Below are positions 21,001 to 30,000 of a stretch of DNA of 64,000 bases, piece by piece. Made by a program: the position numbers. Numbering within the stretch: the first letter of the stretch is position 1; every line of letters starts with the position of its first letter. The stretch is from an uncultured delta proteobacterium (lineage in GTDB: Bacteria; Desulfobacterota; Desulfuromonadia; Desulfuromonadales; BM103): contig CAVQRZ010000043.1 in assembly GCA_963715335.1 (NCBI GenBank), forward strand, positions 1 through 64,000, read 5' to 3'.

Positions 21001-24000
21001 CGTCTGGTCGTCGCCGACGAGCCGGTTTCGGCGCTAGACCTCTCGATCCAGGCCCAGATCGTCAACCTTCTCAAGGACCTGCAAAAGGAATTCGGCCTGA
21101 CCTACCTTTTCATCTCACACGATCTCGGCGTCATCGAGCATGTCTGCGACCGGGTCGCGGTCATGTACCTGGGGAGAATCGTTGAAATCGCCACTGTGGA
21201 AGACCTCTATGGTCGCCCCCGTCACCCCTATACCGAGGCCCTGCTGAACGCGGTGCCGTTTCCGGACCCGAACAGGCATCGTCAGAAGCAGGTCTTAAGT
21301 GGCGAGATCCCCTCTCCGATTGATCCGCCGACAGGTTGTCACTTCCACCCGCGCTGCCCTTATGCAAAAGATATCTGTCGGCAGGAATATCCTGCGTTCT
21401 CCGAACAGGTTCCCGGGCACACGGCAGCCTGCCATTTCAGTGCAGAGGTAGGCCGTTTTCGCACAAACGTCAACCAGACTTGAAGCGATAGAGATTAAAG
21501 AAAGCCCTAAAGGAATGGAGAGATTGCATGCCGAGTTTTGATGTTGTGTTCAAGGTAGACCTGCAGGAAGTGGACAATGCCATTAACCTGGCCCGTAAAG
21601 AGGTCAACCAGCGCTTCGATTTCAAAGGGACTCACAATGAAATAGACCTTGCGGATGATGGTATCGTCATCCTCGCTGCCGATGACTACAAGCTGACAGC
21701 GGTCGTCGACATCCTGCGCGGCAAGCTGGCGCGCCGCAACGTTTCCCCCAGCTGTCTTGATTTCGGCAAGAAGGAGCCCGCCTCGCACGGTGCAGTCCGC
21801 CAGCGCATCAATATCCTCCAGGGGATCGACAAGGAAAAAGGCAAGCAGATCACCAAAACGATCAAGGAGAGCAAGCTCAAGGTCCAGGCCCAGATCATGG
21901 AGGACCAGTTACGGGTCAGCGGCAAGAAAATCGACGATCTGCAGGAAGTTATCCAGCTCCTCAAGGGGAAGGATTTCGGCATCGAACTGCAGTTCATCAA
22001 CATGCGCAGCTAGAGACAGAATGCTCCCGGCAAGATCAGTCACCAGCATGGGCATGGGCATGGGCGAGGCCAAGACCGATTATTCAGTCGTGGGAATTTA
22101 GCCGTGAAGATCTTGCGTGGCCTGATTGCTACTGTTCTGTTGTTGCTGCTGACTGCTTGCCCGAACCGGGGGCCGGAGTCAGACGCAGTGGCAGAACCCT
22201 GCACGGAGACCTGGTACCGAACTGTAGAGGCAACCGTCTCCTCCGGCGATGGCATGGGTCACGGGCCGGACGTTGGCTCCGAGGAATGGCAGTCCGTTAT
22301 TGAGTTTAAACTCGGGGTGCGCGGCAACCCCGACGTCCCGGATCGAAATAGCCAGGAATGGTGCCGATTTATCAATGACTTGTTATAGCAGCGATCAGCA
22401 AAGCAGTCGGGAAGGCCTCTTCCGATCATCAGGACGCGTCGAGACAACCGCCTTCACTTCGAACAAAAGGCTTTGAACGCAGCAATCACAGCCGGGATAT
22501 CCGCCGCATCAAAATCGTGATGTGTCACCAGCCGCAGCTGGCCATACCCCCCGGCCAGGATCCCCCTCTCCTTGAGATAGTCGAGAAGACGTGCCTGCCT
22601 TTCCGGGTTCATGGTAACGAAGACCATATTGGTCTGCACAGCATCCATGTCAACATCAAGACCGTCGACCCCCGATAAACCCGCAGCCAGCTCCCCGGCA
22701 TTGCGATGATCTTCAGCGAGACGCTCGACGTTGTTTTCCAGGGCGTGGATACCCGCAGCAGCGAGAACCCCGGCCTGTCGCATCCCGCCCCCGGCCATCT
22801 TGCGCCAGCGACGCGCACGCGCGATCAATTCGTCTGAACCGACCAGGACAGAACCAACTGGCGCGCCGAGTCCTTTGGACAAGCAGATCGATACCGAATC
22901 GTAATATTGTGCGATTTGCGCCAGAGGAACCTGCTGACTGACCGCCGCATTGAACACCCGCGCGCCATCGAGATGCAGCTTCAGGCCACGCTCTCTGGCA
23001 AACCTGGAGGCCTCAGCCTGATAATCAAGGGGCAACACCCTGCCGCCCCGGGTGTTTTCGAGACAGAGCAGGCGGGTCACGGCAAAATGGTCATCGATTG
23101 GCTTGATCGCTGTGGCGACCTTCGCCAGATCGAGAGATCCGTTCACCTCGAAATCGATCGGTTGCGGTTGCACTCCGCCGAAAACCGCGGCACCACCTGC
23201 TTCGTAACGATAGCAATGGGCCTGCTGCCCGGCAATATACTCTTCACCGCGCTGACAGTGTGACAGGATCGCCAGGAGATTCCCCTGGGTGCCACTCGGT
23301 ACAAACAAGGCGGCTTCCTTACCCGCCATACCCGCAACCAGCTCCTGCAGACGGTTGACTGTCGGATCCTCACCATAGACATCATCTCCAAGTTCGGCGG
23401 CGAACATGGCCCGGCGCATGGTTTCAGTGGGTCTGGTGACTGTGTCACTGCGCAGATCGATGATTTTCATATTGATCACTTCTCCTGAATGGACCGGCTG
23501 ACTGGTCATACCATAACATTTGAGATTCTCCAACGCTATCAAGCTGTACGGTTTACAGCCTTGCAGCCAGCCTTCCTGATGTATTGACACAATCGTGCCA
23601 GAAATGGCACAATCTTGCGTCACATCTACTCAAGACGACCCTGGAGAGCTATGGGCCCGATCATTACCGTCAAGGAAAACTGTCGTAAATGCTACGCCTG
23701 CATCCGCAACTGTCCGGTCAAGGCGATCCGGGTCCACCGCAATTATGCCGAAGTCATCAGCGACCGATGCATCGGTTGCGGCAACTGCGTCAAGAGCTGC
23801 TCGCAGAAAGCCAAGGTGATCGCCGACCATGTCGGCGAGTGCCGGAACCTTCTCGCTGGTGAGCAGCCGCCGATTGCAATACTCGGCTGTTCGCATCCGG
23901 CCTTTTTCAACGACATCCGTTCAGGCCAGCTGGTAACCGGCCTGCGTCGTCTAGGTTTTGCAGAAGTCCACGAAGGCGCCGCCGGCGTTGACCTGTTGCG

Positions 24001-27000: not shown

Positions 27001-30000
27001 GGGCAGGATAGCCTACCCCGGGGTCGTCATAGGCCCGGCGGCCATCCTCGAAGAAAGGTTCGGTTTTGCCGACATCCTGGACGAAGAGGGAGTAGATATC
27101 CAGGCCGAGTTGCAAAGTCTCGAAAGCGCTCTGGAGAAGACCTGTATTCAAACTATTTTCCTCGAGAAACGCGTCGCGGAGCGTCTGAGCGAAAGCGATG
27201 CGGCAATCTTCCACACCCATCTGATGATTCTTGAGGATCGCAGTTTCATCGCAAAGCTGCAGGATAAAATCAAAGACGGGCACAGTGCTGCATACGCCCT
27301 GGAAAAAACCGTCGCCAATTACCTCGAAGCCTTTGCGAAGATGGACGACCCCTATCTTCGGGAACGTGCAGCCGACATGGAAGACATCGGCCGACGTATC
27401 TTGGCCAACCTGATCGGCGATGGCTCGGAGCATACCCTGCACCTGAAACATCCCAGTGTGCTGGTCGCCAGGAAGATCCTTCCTTCTGACATGGCCTCGC
27501 TCGATAATGATCAGATCCTCGGCATCATTACCGAAGACTGTGAAACCAACTCACATGCCGTGATCATGGCGAAAGCGATGGGCATCCCGGCAATCGTCGG
27601 TGCCCGCGGGGCGGTGAGACAAATTGCGCCGGAAGACGACCTGATCGTGGATGCCAACTCGGGGCGTATTTACATTAAACCGATGGAGGCGATCAGAGAA
27701 GAATTCCAGAGGCTCCTTGCGGATCAAACGCGCGAACTGTGCCGTCTTGAGCAGTACCGCGATCAGCCTGCTGAGACCTCTGATGGCGAAAGGGTCACTT
27801 TACGCGCCAACATCGGCCTGATCAGTGACATCGTTATTGCAAAACGTTTTGGCGCCGAAGGCGTAGGCCTCTATCGAACCGAATTCCCCTACATGGCCCG
27901 GGGCGATTTTCCAGACCGGAACGATCAGTACGAACTGTACAGCAAAGTCGTCAGGGAATTCGAGGGCCAGCCTGTGACAATTCGGACCCTCGATATTGGT
28001 GGCGACAAGGGGCTCCCCTACTTTAGTCCACCGAAGGAAGATAACCCGTTTATGGGCTGGCGTTCCGTGCGCGTCTCTCTGGACAACCGGGACATTTTCC
28101 GTACCCAAATAGAGTCAATTCTCATGGCCGGTTGCCACGGCCCGGTCAAGCTGCTCTTCCCCATGATCTCGAGCCTGGAAGAAACCCGAGCCTGTCTTGA
28201 AGTCGTTGAGGAAGCCCGGGCCAATCTCAAAAAGGACGGGTTGGACTGCCCAGGCAAAATCCCCGTCGGCGTCATGATTGAAGTGCCTGCCGCAGTAAGA
28301 CTGGTCCCGCAACTTGCCAACGAAGTTGACTTTTTCGCCCTGGGCACCAACGACCTGATCCAATACCTGCTCGCCGCCGACCGCAACAACCCTCTGGTCA
28401 GCAAATACTACGATCCACTGCATCCTGCCGTCCTCCATGTCATCCATGAAGTCACCAGCACCGCATTGTCGAGGGGCAAGGGCGTAAGTCTTTGTGGAGA
28501 AATGGCAACCGACCCCATGACCCTGTTGCTTTTGCTCGGCATGGGCCTGAGAGAATTCTCCATGCCAGCGCCCTTCATCCCGCGGATCAAGGCTTTTCTG
28601 AAAAGCGTCTCCCTGGAAATGGCTTGCCAACGCTACGCGGAAATCAGCACCATGGACAGCAGCACGCAGATTCGTCAGCATCTGGCCGAGGTGTTGAAGG
28701 ATGTTAATCTAGGGGACTAGGCAGAGCTTTTCCAGAACAGCAGAGTTCCGACGATCCACCCCGAAATGACAACGCACACACCACGTAACAAATAATTACG
28801 TGAATATCATCTGTTCGCTGCATGTTTTTCTCTTCTAGACTTCGGTATTTTGTGGCGCTTTCGGGTGGGCTGGTAGACCAGGAAGGTACAAAGGATATTG
28901 CCTGATCTTCAGAAAACGTCGAACACTATAAATCCTACGGACATGTAAGCCTCCCCCTGTGTCAGGATAGTTGTCTATGATGACTGTTCATCGTGACTTA
29001 TAGGAAAGACTTCCTCTACCTGCATTTGCTTTCAAGTAAATGCGCTGCTTTATGCCATGCCGACCATGACCACGCCTACGAAAATCAGACCGACGCCTAC
29101 CAAGCGTGGTTTGGAAACCTGACGCTCAATCCAAAATATCGAAATTAACACTGTAATTAAGATGCTGACTTGCCGAAAGGAGACAACGTAGGCGACTGGG
29201 TCACTGGTCAGAGCCAAAAGAATCAAGCTGTAGGAGATCAGAAAGATCAATCCGGCGAACAGGGCACGATACCGGTGGACAACTGGGTATTGTTGCTGCA
29301 AACGTAGAGTACAAACTTCCATGACTAACAGCGCCACTAGGTTTTGCAGGTACACGTAGTTGATACGGTAATAGATCGCTAGATCAATCGGCGCGGTCGG
29401 CATGTTCACAGCGGCATACTTGTCGATTACAGAAAAGAGACTGGTTGCAACCGCGGCAAGCAGAGCCCAGCAACAGCTTCGATTCAGATAATTGGCGGGA
29501 GTAAAGCCATTCGGACCTATGCTAAAACTGCCCATGGGTAGAACGAAACAGCCGACTACGACCAATACGATTCCTGCCATGCCAACAGCCGAAGGTGTCA
29601 CACCCCAAAGGAAAAGAACCCAAGTTACGACCAGGATCGGGAATGAGCGCGCTATCGGGTAGGCAACTGAAACCTGGCCATACTGGTAAGCCTTGCTGAG
29701 GCAGAAGAAAAACAGCCCTACGGCAAGACCTGAGGCGATTATACAGGCTAAATAGGTTGGCGAATAATCGACCAAGAAGAAGAATATCACGAATAAGGGT
29801 GCGTAGCAGAGGGCCGAAAATCGGAGTGCCTGGCGCATAAAAGCGATCGGACCGCCACTCGACTTGGCGAGAAGATTCCAGAGGCTATGACATACGGCCG
29901 AAAGCAAAACAAACAGGATCGCGGGTAAGCTCAAGGGAGTAAGACTCCTTGGTAAGTGCTACATGAGGCCTCTTCAGAATATCATGAGGCAGGATCATCC

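Follow-up and report, generated by a model that had tools for sequence, protein, structure and literature searches.

What does a transcriptional activator that carries an [FeFe]-hydrogenase domain sense in a genome lacking the H-cluster maturases, and which gene does it switch on? The question is posed by a locus in a Desulfuromonadales genome, analysed here within a window of 64,000 nt (contig CAVQRZ010000043.1). A first-pass annotation read the protein as a redox or gas sensor acting directly on sigma-54 transcription, probably of the adjoining ptsP gene, and held this route to be new. That reading stands as to a one-component activator with an Fe-S module in a lineage without an H-cluster maturase; it gives way on the ptsP target and on novelty. 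The gene that the disabled-hydrogenase regulator switches on is most likely not ptsP but one for a small RNA that had not been described before. The activator gene is made up as follows.

23651..25921, + strand: activator gene, a sigma-54 enhancer-binding protein (ORF of 756 aa)
23666-23812, + strand: Fer4-type dicluster, two Fer4 matches (aa 6-54; Pfam)
23915-24550, + strand: H-domain, Fe_hyd_lg_C (aa 89-300; Pfam 2.5e-45, model positions 25-245 of 245)
24776-24865, + strand: 4-Cys FeS domain PF04060, Cx2Cx4Cx16C (aa 376-405; Pfam)
24962-25462, + strand: AAA+ domain, Sigma54_activat (aa 438-604; Pfam 2e-68)
+ strand: AAA_lid_14 domain of the activator (Pfam)
25769-25879, + strand: HTH_8 (aa 707-743; Pfam)

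Pfam agrees that two Fer4 motifs, the H-domain, FeS, sigma-54 AAA+ and HTH domains lie in one 756-aa protein, and the translation carries both GESGTGKE and GSFTGA. The predicted structure of the sensor (pLDDT 93.3, pTM 0.89) finds its best structural matches among [FeFe] hydrogenases (top E 1.2e-20). The broad database spread claimed earlier is borne out, with at least 3078 proteins matching aa 1-430 at E<=0.001 (8000 candidates scored); 118 of the best 120 listed are 692-808 aa long. Elsewhere, homologs of the sensor module are fused to histidine kinases, GGDEF, MCP and PAS outputs. The reading as a one-component sigma-54 activator whose Fe-S module is of the sensory-hydrogenase type is supported. 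Its novelty is not, as two papers already describe such activators: sensor domains of Clostridiales activators include Fer4, Fe_hyd_lg_C and FeS (Nie et al., PMC6615313), and a Geobacter enhancer-binding protein has an iron-only-hydrogenase domain (Ueki and Lovley, PMC2817479).

What does the H-domain hold? The host genome (3.30 Mb in 43 contigs; rated 100% complete, 6.87% contamination) has exactly one Fe_hyd_lg_C match and no HydE, HydF or HydG above the curated cut-off, which the Thermotoga maritima and Bacteroides thetaiotaomicron controls pass; both points had been made before. Surveyed for HydF only, 108/110 genomes of the order with the linked small RNA lack it, as do 91 of the 92 genomes of the class with an ortholog at >=47% identity. 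In an 83-row alignment the H-cluster ligands C137, C185, C292 and C296 are invariant, as first proposed. Twelve further cluster cysteines had been called invariant; eleven are (C11, C14, C17, C21, C40, C46, C50, C378, C381, C386 and C403), but C43 is kept in >=90% of the rows. Aligned to solved hydrogenases, K189 does correspond to a hydrogenase lysine, but to the second of C-x-x-K-K-x-E; the place of the first (C+3), which we take to be the cyanide-binding K358 in CpI numbering, is occupied by Gly188. In the activator clade the proton-relay Cys is replaced by His, the C+3 Lys of hydrogenases by Gly and A-P-S by G-C-S; the residues so replaced have functional roles in hydrogenases. Judged from these sequences, the sensor most likely descended from a sensory-hydrogenase module, keeping all sixteen cluster cysteines and losing the residues that hold the [2Fe] subcluster. 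Given this loss, and genomes without HydEFG, it most likely carries [4Fe-4S] clusters only. It would then report the redox state of the cell's low-potential electron pool. With a [NiFe] hydrogenase encoded in the host, hydrogen matters to its physiology; it would be sensed only indirectly, through uptake by that enzyme.

Similar features mark the putative sensory [FeFe] hydrogenases of groups C and D (TmHydS, TamHydS; PMC8163306, PMC13104023, PMC8924675): ferredoxin clusters at the N terminus, an H-domain lacking the proton-relay cysteine and a 4-Cys FeS domain at the C terminus. The kinase, GGDEF, MCP or PAS outputs noted above belong to homologs that have this module. Here, however, there is no PAS domain and the module is fused directly to sigma-54 AAA+ and HTH domains. 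Further changes in this clade affect the C+3 Lys, the A-P-S motif and the residue that precedes the L3 cysteines, and its activator lives without HydF.

Around the activator gene lie the following control elements and neighbours.

23584..23613, + strand: sigma-70-like promoter of the activator gene, TTGACA-18-CACAAT (10/12 matches), a weak call taken alone since such sites are no more frequent in the region than in shuffles
23594..23611, no strand: third predicted activator palindrome, CGTGCCAGAAATGGCACA (PWM 22.3 bits, third-best genome-wide)
25972..25989, no strand: predicted upstream activator site 1, TGTGCCATTTATGGCGCA, at about -171 from the -24 element (25.3 bits)
26038..26055, no strand: predicted upstream activator site 2, TGCGCCATAAATGGCACA, at about -105 from the -24 element (25.3 bits)
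26144..26159, + strand: sigma-54 promoter TGGCACGATAATTGCT, TGGCAC-N5-TTGCT, read directly from the sequence
26170..26263, + strand: predicted small RNA of ~94 nt, its start placed by promoter spacing
26180-26217, + strand: 5' hairpin of the small RNA
26223-26257, + strand: terminator hairpin of the small RNA, followed by seven U
26236..26245, + strand: terminator loop ACCUCUCUCC, holding the conserved word CUCUCUCC, the predicted seed
26375..28720, + strand: ptsP, GAF domain and enzyme I of the nitrogen PTS (Pfam)

The consensus sigma-54 promoter reported earlier is present; the exact form TGGCA[CT]-N5-TTGCT recurs in 28/30 ortholog loci and near variants in the other two, and promoter, RNA and terminator are all found in 30/30. 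TGTGCCA-N4-TGGCACA palindromes make up the top three PWM matches in 3.3 Mb (25.3, 25.3 and 22.3 bits; next best 18.1). Sites 1 and 2 share first place and are conserved in position among ortholog loci. Two genomes that have the RNA and lack the activator also lack the sites upstream of the RNA (best scores 3.3 and -7.0 bits). Comparison of loci argues strongly that the active protein would bind both sites, ~105 and ~171 bp upstream of the sigma-54 promoter, and drive an RNA of ~94 nt that stops at its own terminator. The third palindrome overlaps the activator gene's own promoter, and an equivalent occurs in 29/30 ortholog loci, 78-171 nt before the codon of the first ferredoxin Cys, which itself lies ~10 codons inside the gene. 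Its position implies autorepression; the activator would bind there too, presumably as negative autoregulation.

The RNA covariance model has a single match in the host (26166-26263, 112.3 bits) and finds the RNA in 110/151 genomes of the order; Rfam has no family that matches it. The fold energy is -32.1 kcal/mol (z = -3.57). Among 68 distinct sequences, pairing holds in 95.1% of cells and 8/15 pairs vary on both sides; covariation scores 0.300, compared with 0.164 for shuffles. All 68 keep a GC-rich terminator with 7-9 U. The CU-rich loop, which contains no GGA, is the most conserved element: UCUCUCC is present in 67/68 sequences, and one ends UCUCUC. RNA data come from metatranscriptome contigs of relatives only; one such contig stops at the U tract (26263) and also reaches upstream of the promoter, weak evidence that could be DNA. 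In the window and in all loci inspected, distant ones included, ptsP lies 3' of the RNA on the same strand, a link that the small-RNA model leaves unexplained.

What might the RNA act on? The invariant loop CUCUCUCC is complementary to GGAGAGAG, which lies on the ribosome-binding sites of citrate synthase, aconitase B, isocitrate dehydrogenase, malate dehydrogenase, class I fumarase and succinyl-CoA:acetate CoA-transferase. These citric-acid-cycle enzymes are six of the 32 host ORFs of >=80 aa with GGAGAGAG 8-21 nt before the start; the background is the 8-mer upstream of 21/5123 ORFs of >=150 codons, gene starts being those of a crude ORF caller. Four of the six sites were checked in RNA-bearing relatives for GGAGAGA upstream of the start, which is found at gltA in 36/36 genomes, at mdh in 33/33, at the CoA-transferase gene in 27/28 and at acnB in 30/34, four lacking the word. 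G004, of unclear RNA status, was left out of the gltA and CoA-transferase counts and has the word at both genes. In G028 and G033, which have HydF and neither the RNA nor an activator ortholog of the clade, 0/6 sites carry GGAGAGA; G019, without RNA and activator, still has it at gltA and acnB, which, like the four acnB exceptions, counts against the small-RNA model. As GGAGAGAG contains the Shine-Dalgarno core, part of the conservation is expected without the RNA. From complementarity and conservation, the RNA appears to be aimed at ribosome-binding sites of citric-acid-cycle genes. Pairing of CUCUCUCC with GGAGAGAG at the six sites would block translation and throttle acetate oxidation.

Such an arrangement has counterparts. 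RoxS/RsaE in Firmicutes and RyhB in enterobacteria are stress- or redox-controlled small RNAs whose C-rich or CU-rich seeds pair with ribosome-binding sites of citric-acid-cycle mRNAs, including that of aconitase. The RNA described here, however, has no sequence relation to them, and its control is by sigma-54 and an Fe-S activator, not by ResD/Rex or Fur. In LuxO-Qrr of Vibrio and the sigma-54-dependent non-coding RNAs beside activators in Desulfovibrio vulgaris (PMC4641369), the main or only direct target of an activator is likewise an adjoining small RNA, which then sets a post-transcriptional regulon. Here, by contrast, the activator is a one-component Fe-S sensor instead of a response regulator, and the RNA, present in one copy, has its seed in the terminator loop and the citric acid cycle as predicted regulon.

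A further parallel comes from Geobacter. Ueki and Lovley (PMC2817479) place the hydrogenase-domain activator upstream of hgtR and propose that it senses hydrogen; the type of activator was therefore already noted. In the same paper, hgtR is RpoN-dependent and higher on hydrogen, and HgtR represses gltA (citrate synthase) when hydrogen supports growth. In other orders of the class, 18/18 loci have an ORF of 60-63 aa starting MG[RK]MRENPRYNV 172-314 nt after the activator gene, and the binding-site pattern lies downstream of that gene in 12 of the 18; MGRMREN is encoded by the published primer with which hgtR was cloned (PMC2817479). The RNA model matches 0/18 of these loci, and a tblastn search of the host with one of these ORFs gives no hgtR (best E 3.9). 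The two systems have orthologous activators (47-57% identity over the sensor) with a common T/S-H-C-P motif, TGTGCC-N6-GGCACA-type sites downstream of the activator gene, a sigma-54-dependent, monocistronic, terminator-ended output and the same target pathway. They differ in their output, here a non-coding RNA of ~94 nt that lacks an ORF and does not resemble hgtR, predicted to act on translation at ribosome-binding sites instead of on promoters, and in that ptsP follows here but not in Geobacter-type loci.

Might the H-domain instead contain a true H-cluster or other gas-binding site and respond to H2 or CO itself, as has been suggested for the Geobacter protein? Transcripts of hgtR are higher on hydrogen (PMC2817479). 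The four ligand cysteines are all invariant, the predicted structure superposes on [FeFe] hydrogenases, and the [NiFe] hydrogenase makes hydrogen relevant to the host; yet the missing HydEFG, the near-absence of HydF from both surveyed groups and the His, Gly and G-C-S replacements make direct sensing very unlikely. Somewhat more credible, though still doubtful, is that the clusters report damage or supply and not redox poise: oxygen, nitric oxide or a shortage of Fe-S or iron would switch the activator as its cluster is destroyed, and the RNA would, in the manner of RyhB, silence Fe-S enzymes and so save iron. The sixteen invariant or near-invariant cluster cysteines are in keeping with this, and aconitase B and class I fumarase belong to [4Fe-4S] enzyme families; however, 4/6 predicted targets are not known as Fe-S enzymes and none of the 32 GGAGAGAG sites belongs to an iron-uptake gene. 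The Geobacter counterpart, moreover, responds to electron donor (PMC2817479).

Is ptsP the true output after all, with the RNA as its 5' leader or attenuator and a terminator read through on signal? The constant order of RNA and ptsP suggests so, as ptsP follows the RNA even in three genomes with a non-adjacent activator, and an activator homolog directly adjoins ptsP in family f5. The target first proposed is nonetheless probably wrong, and readthrough unlikely: a conserved RNA with its own strong terminator, kept in every distinct sequence, ends 111 nt before the ptsP start. The terminator loop is conserved instead of free to vary and matches citric-acid-cycle ribosome-binding sites, not the ptsP leader; no alternative antiterminator fold turned up, and the output of this activator in the other orders of the class is hgtR, with ptsP not in the vicinity. 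There is also a slim chance that the RNA acts on a protein, its two conserved GGA-containing stretches titrating CsrA; the GGAGAGAG sites would in that case have nothing to do with the loop and serve as CsrA sites or as strong ribosome sites. Within the family, the 5' arm repeatedly shows GGGA and the inner hairpin GGA; the CsrA motif is A(N)GGA at ribosome-binding sites, and CsrA has reportedly been studied in Geobacter (PMC11934962). Two GGA motifs are, however, few for a sponge, and the most conserved element is the loop, free of GGA; the targets, for their part, conserve an AGAG extension past the Shine-Dalgarno core that is missing in the two genomes with neither the RNA nor an activator of the clade.

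On balance, then, the account we favour, with some reserve, is that of a [4Fe-4S] sensor which, through a sigma-54-dependent small RNA, acts on citric-acid-cycle ribosome-binding sites, the gene being the Desulfuromonadales ortholog of the Geobacter activator upstream of hgtR. The sensor and binding sites are the same in Geobacter-type orders, but what they drive there is a protein repressor, HgtR. What appears to be new is the small RNA, together with its predicted regulon and the replacement of a protein by an RNA.

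The candidate small RNA lies between the gene for a 756-aa sigma-54 enhancer-binding protein, here called the activator, and ptsP. The elements of the locus are as follows.

Features of the locus, with Pfam domains of the activator in amino acid positions and predicted activator sites in bits
23594: predicted activator site, 22.3 bits, third genome-wide (next best 18.1 bits)
23651-25921, + strand: activator open reading frame, 756 aa
aa 6-54: two ferredoxin-type clusters
aa 89-300: Fe_hyd_lg_C, 2.5e-45
aa 376-405: FeS domain, PF04060
aa 438-604: Sigma54_activat, PF00158, 2e-68
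also in the protein: AAA lid
aa 707-743: HTH_8
25972: predicted activator site, 25.3 bits, joint top genome-wide
26038: predicted activator site, 25.3 bits, joint top genome-wide
26144-26159: sigma-54 promoter TGGCACGATAATTGCT, within the activator-ptsP spacer 25922-26374
26170-26263, + strand: candidate small RNA of about 94 nt, start predicted from promoter spacing
26375-28720: ptsP

The activator translation carries GESGTGKE (Walker A) and a GAFTGA-type loop, GSFTGA. Both marks of sigma-54 enhancer-binding proteins are present, an AAA+ domain and an HTH with cognate upstream sites near a -24/-12 promoter. The genome (3.30 Mb in 43 contigs, completeness rated at 100% and contamination at 6.87%) has a single Fe_hyd_lg_C match, and HydE, HydF and HydG gave no match over the curated cut-offs, which control genomes pass. 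Pfam and genome profile searches thus bear out what the first-pass annotation reported on the gene, its domains, the lone hydrogenase domain and the absent maturases. As a separate observation, four contig pairs of the assembly (C4/C5, C1/C32, C18/C42 and C24/C5) share identical gene starts and leaders, e.g. that of the tungstate-binding protein TupA, which fits its contamination or duplication figure of 6.87%.

Downstream of the promoter the sequence closes at 26263 with a GC-rich hairpin and a run of seven T, and folds at -32.1 kcal/mol (z = -3.57). A simple terminator scan did not pick up this terminator because its loop exceeds the length allowed by the scan. Rfam has nothing in 25922-26374 at E<=1, and over 22000-30000, at the same threshold, only a chance lncRNA match within a coding region. 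Exact TGGCA[CT]-N5-TTGCT is present 139-244 nt 3' of the activator stop in 28 of 30 ortholog loci from 30 genomes; the remaining two have one-base variants, and the RNA is then present in all 30. A covariance model built from these loci finds a single copy in the genome (26166-26263, 112.3 bits) and matches 110 of 151 sampled genomes of the order Desulfuromonadales, nearly always once per genome. In a set of 68 distinct sequences, pairing is kept in 95.1% of cells, and both sides have changed in 8 of the 15 pairs. The score for covariation is 0.300, against 0.164 in shuffles (none of 500 is as high) and at most 0.132 for slid partners, in an alignment fitted to the covariance model, which favours the structure somewhat. 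Is the RNA made? Two public metatranscriptomes contain 5-6% of the sampled words, the matching contigs being those of relatives. One such contig spans 26143-26263 and stops at the U tract, yet extends upstream of the promoter and so is not proof of transcription. A divergent copy in one relative (G039, L048 3788-3886) begins 17 nt 3' of the stop codon of a gene for an oligopeptide-transporter ATPase; it lacks a sigma-54 promoter, and its loop is altered to CUCUCUCAC. This copy may be undergoing decay or may arise as a 3'-UTR product.

Both the window and most ortholog loci have two 18-bp palindromes of consensus TGTGCCA-N4-TGGCACA, about 171 and 105 bp 5' of the -24 element. A weight matrix from 57 such sites finds just 8 places at >=14 bits across the genome. 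The third-ranking one, at 23594, overlaps a sigma-70-like promoter just 5' of the activator gene and recurs in 29 of 30 loci. With the top-scoring sites at the RNA promoter and at the activator's own, the direct regulon therefore looks, on predicted sites, like the small RNA and the activator gene itself. Two genomes that have the RNA beside ptsP but no activator also lack palindromes of this kind there, the best scores being 3.3 and -7.0 bits.

What might the RNA act upon? Its terminator-hairpin loop contains CUCUCUCC, the complement of which is GGAGAGAG, and UCUCUCC is kept in 67 of the 68 distinct RNA sequences, the remaining one ending UCUCUC. The GGAGAGAG 8-mer occurs 91 times in the genome, counting both strands, and 32 of these sites sit 8-21 nt 5' of the start of an open reading frame of at least 80 aa. 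Six of the 32 genes encode citric-acid-cycle enzymes: citrate synthase, aconitase B, monomeric isocitrate dehydrogenase, malate dehydrogenase, class I fumarase and succinyl-CoA:acetate CoA-transferase, the site of the last having the most favourable duplex energy among all candidates (-28.3 kcal/mol). As background, the 8-mer lies within 25 nt upstream of 21 of 5123 crude open reading frames of at least 150 codons, and the 7-mer upstream of 54. No ribosomal protein is found among the exact 8-mer sites, 24 of the 32 having been compared with families.

Pairing at these ribosome-binding sites would predict repression. The same word includes the Shine-Dalgarno core, so part of its conservation is expected anyway. 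In RNA-bearing genomes GGAGAGA precedes the start of gltA in 36 of 36, of mdh in 33 of 33, of the CoA-transferase gene in 27 of 28 and of acnB in 30 of 34, and it is kept although the flanking leader sequence has diverged. The respective counts are 0/1, 0/2, 0/1 and 0/2 in G028 and G033, two relatives that carry HydF and give no RNA match even under lax filters; the AGAG extension is missing at all six of their sites. Against pairing, another relative without RNA and activator (G019) retains the word at gltA and acnB, and the word is absent at acnB in four RNA-bearing genomes. One genome with a marginal RNA match (G004, E 0.011) was excluded from the gltA and CoA-transferase counts; GGAGAGA is present at both its genes. 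This genome, of the same genus and 93% complete, has a best activator match of E 2e-5 and retains the GGAGAGAG site at citrate synthase; the lack of an activator and of a convincing RNA is probably an assembly gap.

Several target leaders (gltA, mdh and the CoA-transferase gene of this genome and its relatives, L129-L158 and L266-L325) have a second conserved word, approximately (C)ATTCCA(A/T)C, 5-20 nt 5' of GGAGAGAG. By eye it has no consistent complement in the RNA and was rejected as a second pairing site; it may serve instead as a protein site or as a promoter element. The monomeric isocitrate dehydrogenase reading frame (contig C22, 83917-85482, - strand) is 522 aa long and covers positions 5-514 of a 744-position model, and some 730 nt lie 5' of mdh, which suggests a possible frameshift or assembly error.

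The first-pass annotation had proposed that the activator senses redox, H2 or CO through its H-domain and drives ptsP from the sigma-54 promoter. The first half of this stands in part; the second is probably wrong, as the RNA, with its own terminator, ends 111 nt before the ptsP start. Still, ptsP comes after the RNA in the window as well as at all the distant loci inspected. One family (f5) has an activator homolog, of 42% identity, immediately next to ptsP without an intervening RNA. The f5 homolog in G028 (L065 1478-3751) has 758 aa and 42% identity in the sensor; in this one sequence, as read, the AAA+ domain lacks a GAFTGA-type loop. G028 also carries HydF and true hydrogenase-like genes. 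The link between ptsP and the RNA is real and may reflect read-through or a shared physiological role. No recognisable Shine-Dalgarno sequence precedes the first possible ptsP start at 26375 (26340-26377).

A protein occupies the position of the RNA in the Geobacter-type orders of the class Desulfuromonadia. Ueki and Lovley describe HgtR, a 62-aa repressor of gltA, nuoA, atpG and gntR that is required for growth on hydrogen; hgtR is transcribed from an RpoN-type promoter, with higher levels on hydrogen, and the product of the gene 5' of it is an enhancer-binding protein that contains an iron-only-hydrogenase domain and 'possibly senses hydrogen' (PMC2817479). An activator of this type, put forward as new in the first-pass annotation, was thus already on record there. 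A sensor ortholog at E<=1e-60 is found in 97 of 121 genomes of the class sample. Among cultured relatives, Desulfuromonas versatilis and Desulfuromonas sp. AOP6 have orthologs. Eighteen comparison loci were fetched from the three families outside the order, and in all of them a 60-63-aa reading frame starting MG[RK]MRENPRYNV lies 172-314 nt 3' of the activator gene; the published hgtR primer encodes MGRMREN (PMC2817479). The binding-site pattern is present 3' of the activator gene in 12 of the 18, and the RNA model matches none. Among 80 named loci, 13 have the hgtR-type frame (labelled Geotalea, Geobacter or Geobacteraceae), 32 have the RNA (mostly Desulfuromonadales, Desulfuromonas, Trichloromonas or Geopsychrobacteraceae) and none has both. 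The genome studied here has no hgtR (about 62 aa, ribbon-helix-helix), the best tblastn match being E 3.9, and the RNA takes its position 3' of the activator gene. Sensor, DNA sites and target pathway (a predicted one for the RNA) are alike in the two modules; the intermediate is a protein in one and an RNA in the other. A literature search found 'GSU3363' in no paper.

Does the sensor hold an H-cluster? The four cysteine ligands (C137, C185, C292 and C296) are invariant in an 83-row alignment and match the hydrogenase motifs, and the predicted structure of aa 1-430 (pLDDT 93.3, pTM 0.89) resembles that of [FeFe] hydrogenases (best E 1.2e-20). Functional roles in hydrogenases are assigned to the proton-relay Cys, the first C of C-C-P, and to the Lys at C+3 of motif 2. 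Both are missing from the activator clade, which has H-C-P and S-S-C-x-x-G-K in 43 of 43 orthologs examined; K189, which the first-pass annotation had listed with C185, is the second Lys of C-x-x-K-K-x-E when aligned to solved hydrogenases, the first position being Gly188. Of the marks of a catalytic [FeFe] hydrogenase the Cys ligands are thus there, while the relay Cys, the C+3 Lys and, in this genome, the maturases are not. Most relatives of the sensor have A-P-S-F, x-C-P and G-P-C-x-A-K-K-x-E. The clade departs at each, with G-C-S-(H/Y/F)-P-A or G-C-S-F-T-A, (T/S)-H-C-P and S-S-C-x-(A/G)-G-K-F-E (one K-A-E), and at L3, with R-F-C-x-(G/N)-G-C. The conserved Cys80 and His136, which replace hydrogenase pocket residues, may be ligands of a new metal site.

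Like the putative sensory hydrogenases of groups C and D, the activator combines ferredoxin clusters, an H-domain without the relay Cys and a C-terminal 4-Cys cluster, whose spacing, Cx2Cx4Cx16C, is that of HydS. It differs from them in having no PAS domain after this cluster (no PAS family at E<=0.01 in Pfam). Representative relatives of aa 1-430 number 4354 at E<=1e-3, of which 690 reach E<=1e-30. Among the 30 best full-length ones the output is a histidine kinase in 18, a sigma-54 activator in 6, GGDEF in 2, MCP in 2, PAS only in 1 and none in 1. The region is a putative sensory-hydrogenase module with many outputs, sigma-54 being one among several, and sigma-54 is likewise listed as an output for Clostridiales by Nie et al. 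(PMC6615313). A 616-aa protein of G028 (L066 1299-4332) has the same sensor module, with an A-C-P motif and the same C-terminal 4-Cys domain; the gene 3' of it resembles, by eye, a SpoIIE/PP2C-type phosphatase, and this would be the phosphatase-linked sensory class.

Of 151 order genomes, 22 have HydF above the cut-off. Almost all of these are from the two families without the RNA, and HydF is present in 2 of the 110 RNA-bearing genomes (missing from 108). It is found in 14 of the 121 genomes of the class sample, and in 1 of 92 among those with an ortholog of >=47% identity. With HydF so rare, the known route to the [2Fe] subcluster thus appears to be missing wherever the clade lives, and genomic context argues against a bound [2Fe] subcluster. 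The economical reading is a redox sensor with [4Fe-4S] clusters only, in which case Geobacter would be responding to hydrogen indirectly. A [NiFe] hydrogenase is encoded in the genome.

These elements can be joined in a reading that we hold tentatively, at a little under even confidence. A hydrogenase fossil incapable of carrying an H-cluster would serve as a redox, and indirectly a hydrogen, sensor of a brake on central carbon metabolism. At the split between Desulfuromonadales and the Geobacter-type orders, the brake would have been swapped at the same locus, HgtR acting on promoters and the RNA on ribosome-binding sites, with sensor, sites and pathway unchanged. All functional steps past sequence conservation are predictions. 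The papers searchable on Desulfuromonas and small RNAs, and on sensory hydrogenases joined with sigma-54, have nothing on the RNA; the candidate RNA, its binding sites, the predicted citric-acid-cycle regulon and the putative exchange with HgtR appear undescribed among them.

Relatives of Desulfuromonas and Geobacter respire metals, sulfur and electrodes and, in doing so, oxidize acetate via the citric acid cycle. To our knowledge, a slowing of this cycle under surplus reducing power is known for Geobacter alone, via HgtR. The sister order now gains a concrete and testable candidate regulator, with one sensor, three DNA sites, one small RNA and at least six named targets. The locus also informs the role of hydrogenase-like sensor domains in organisms unable to build the H-cluster and, if the reading is true, would be a clean example of protein and RNA regulators replacing each other beneath one sensor.
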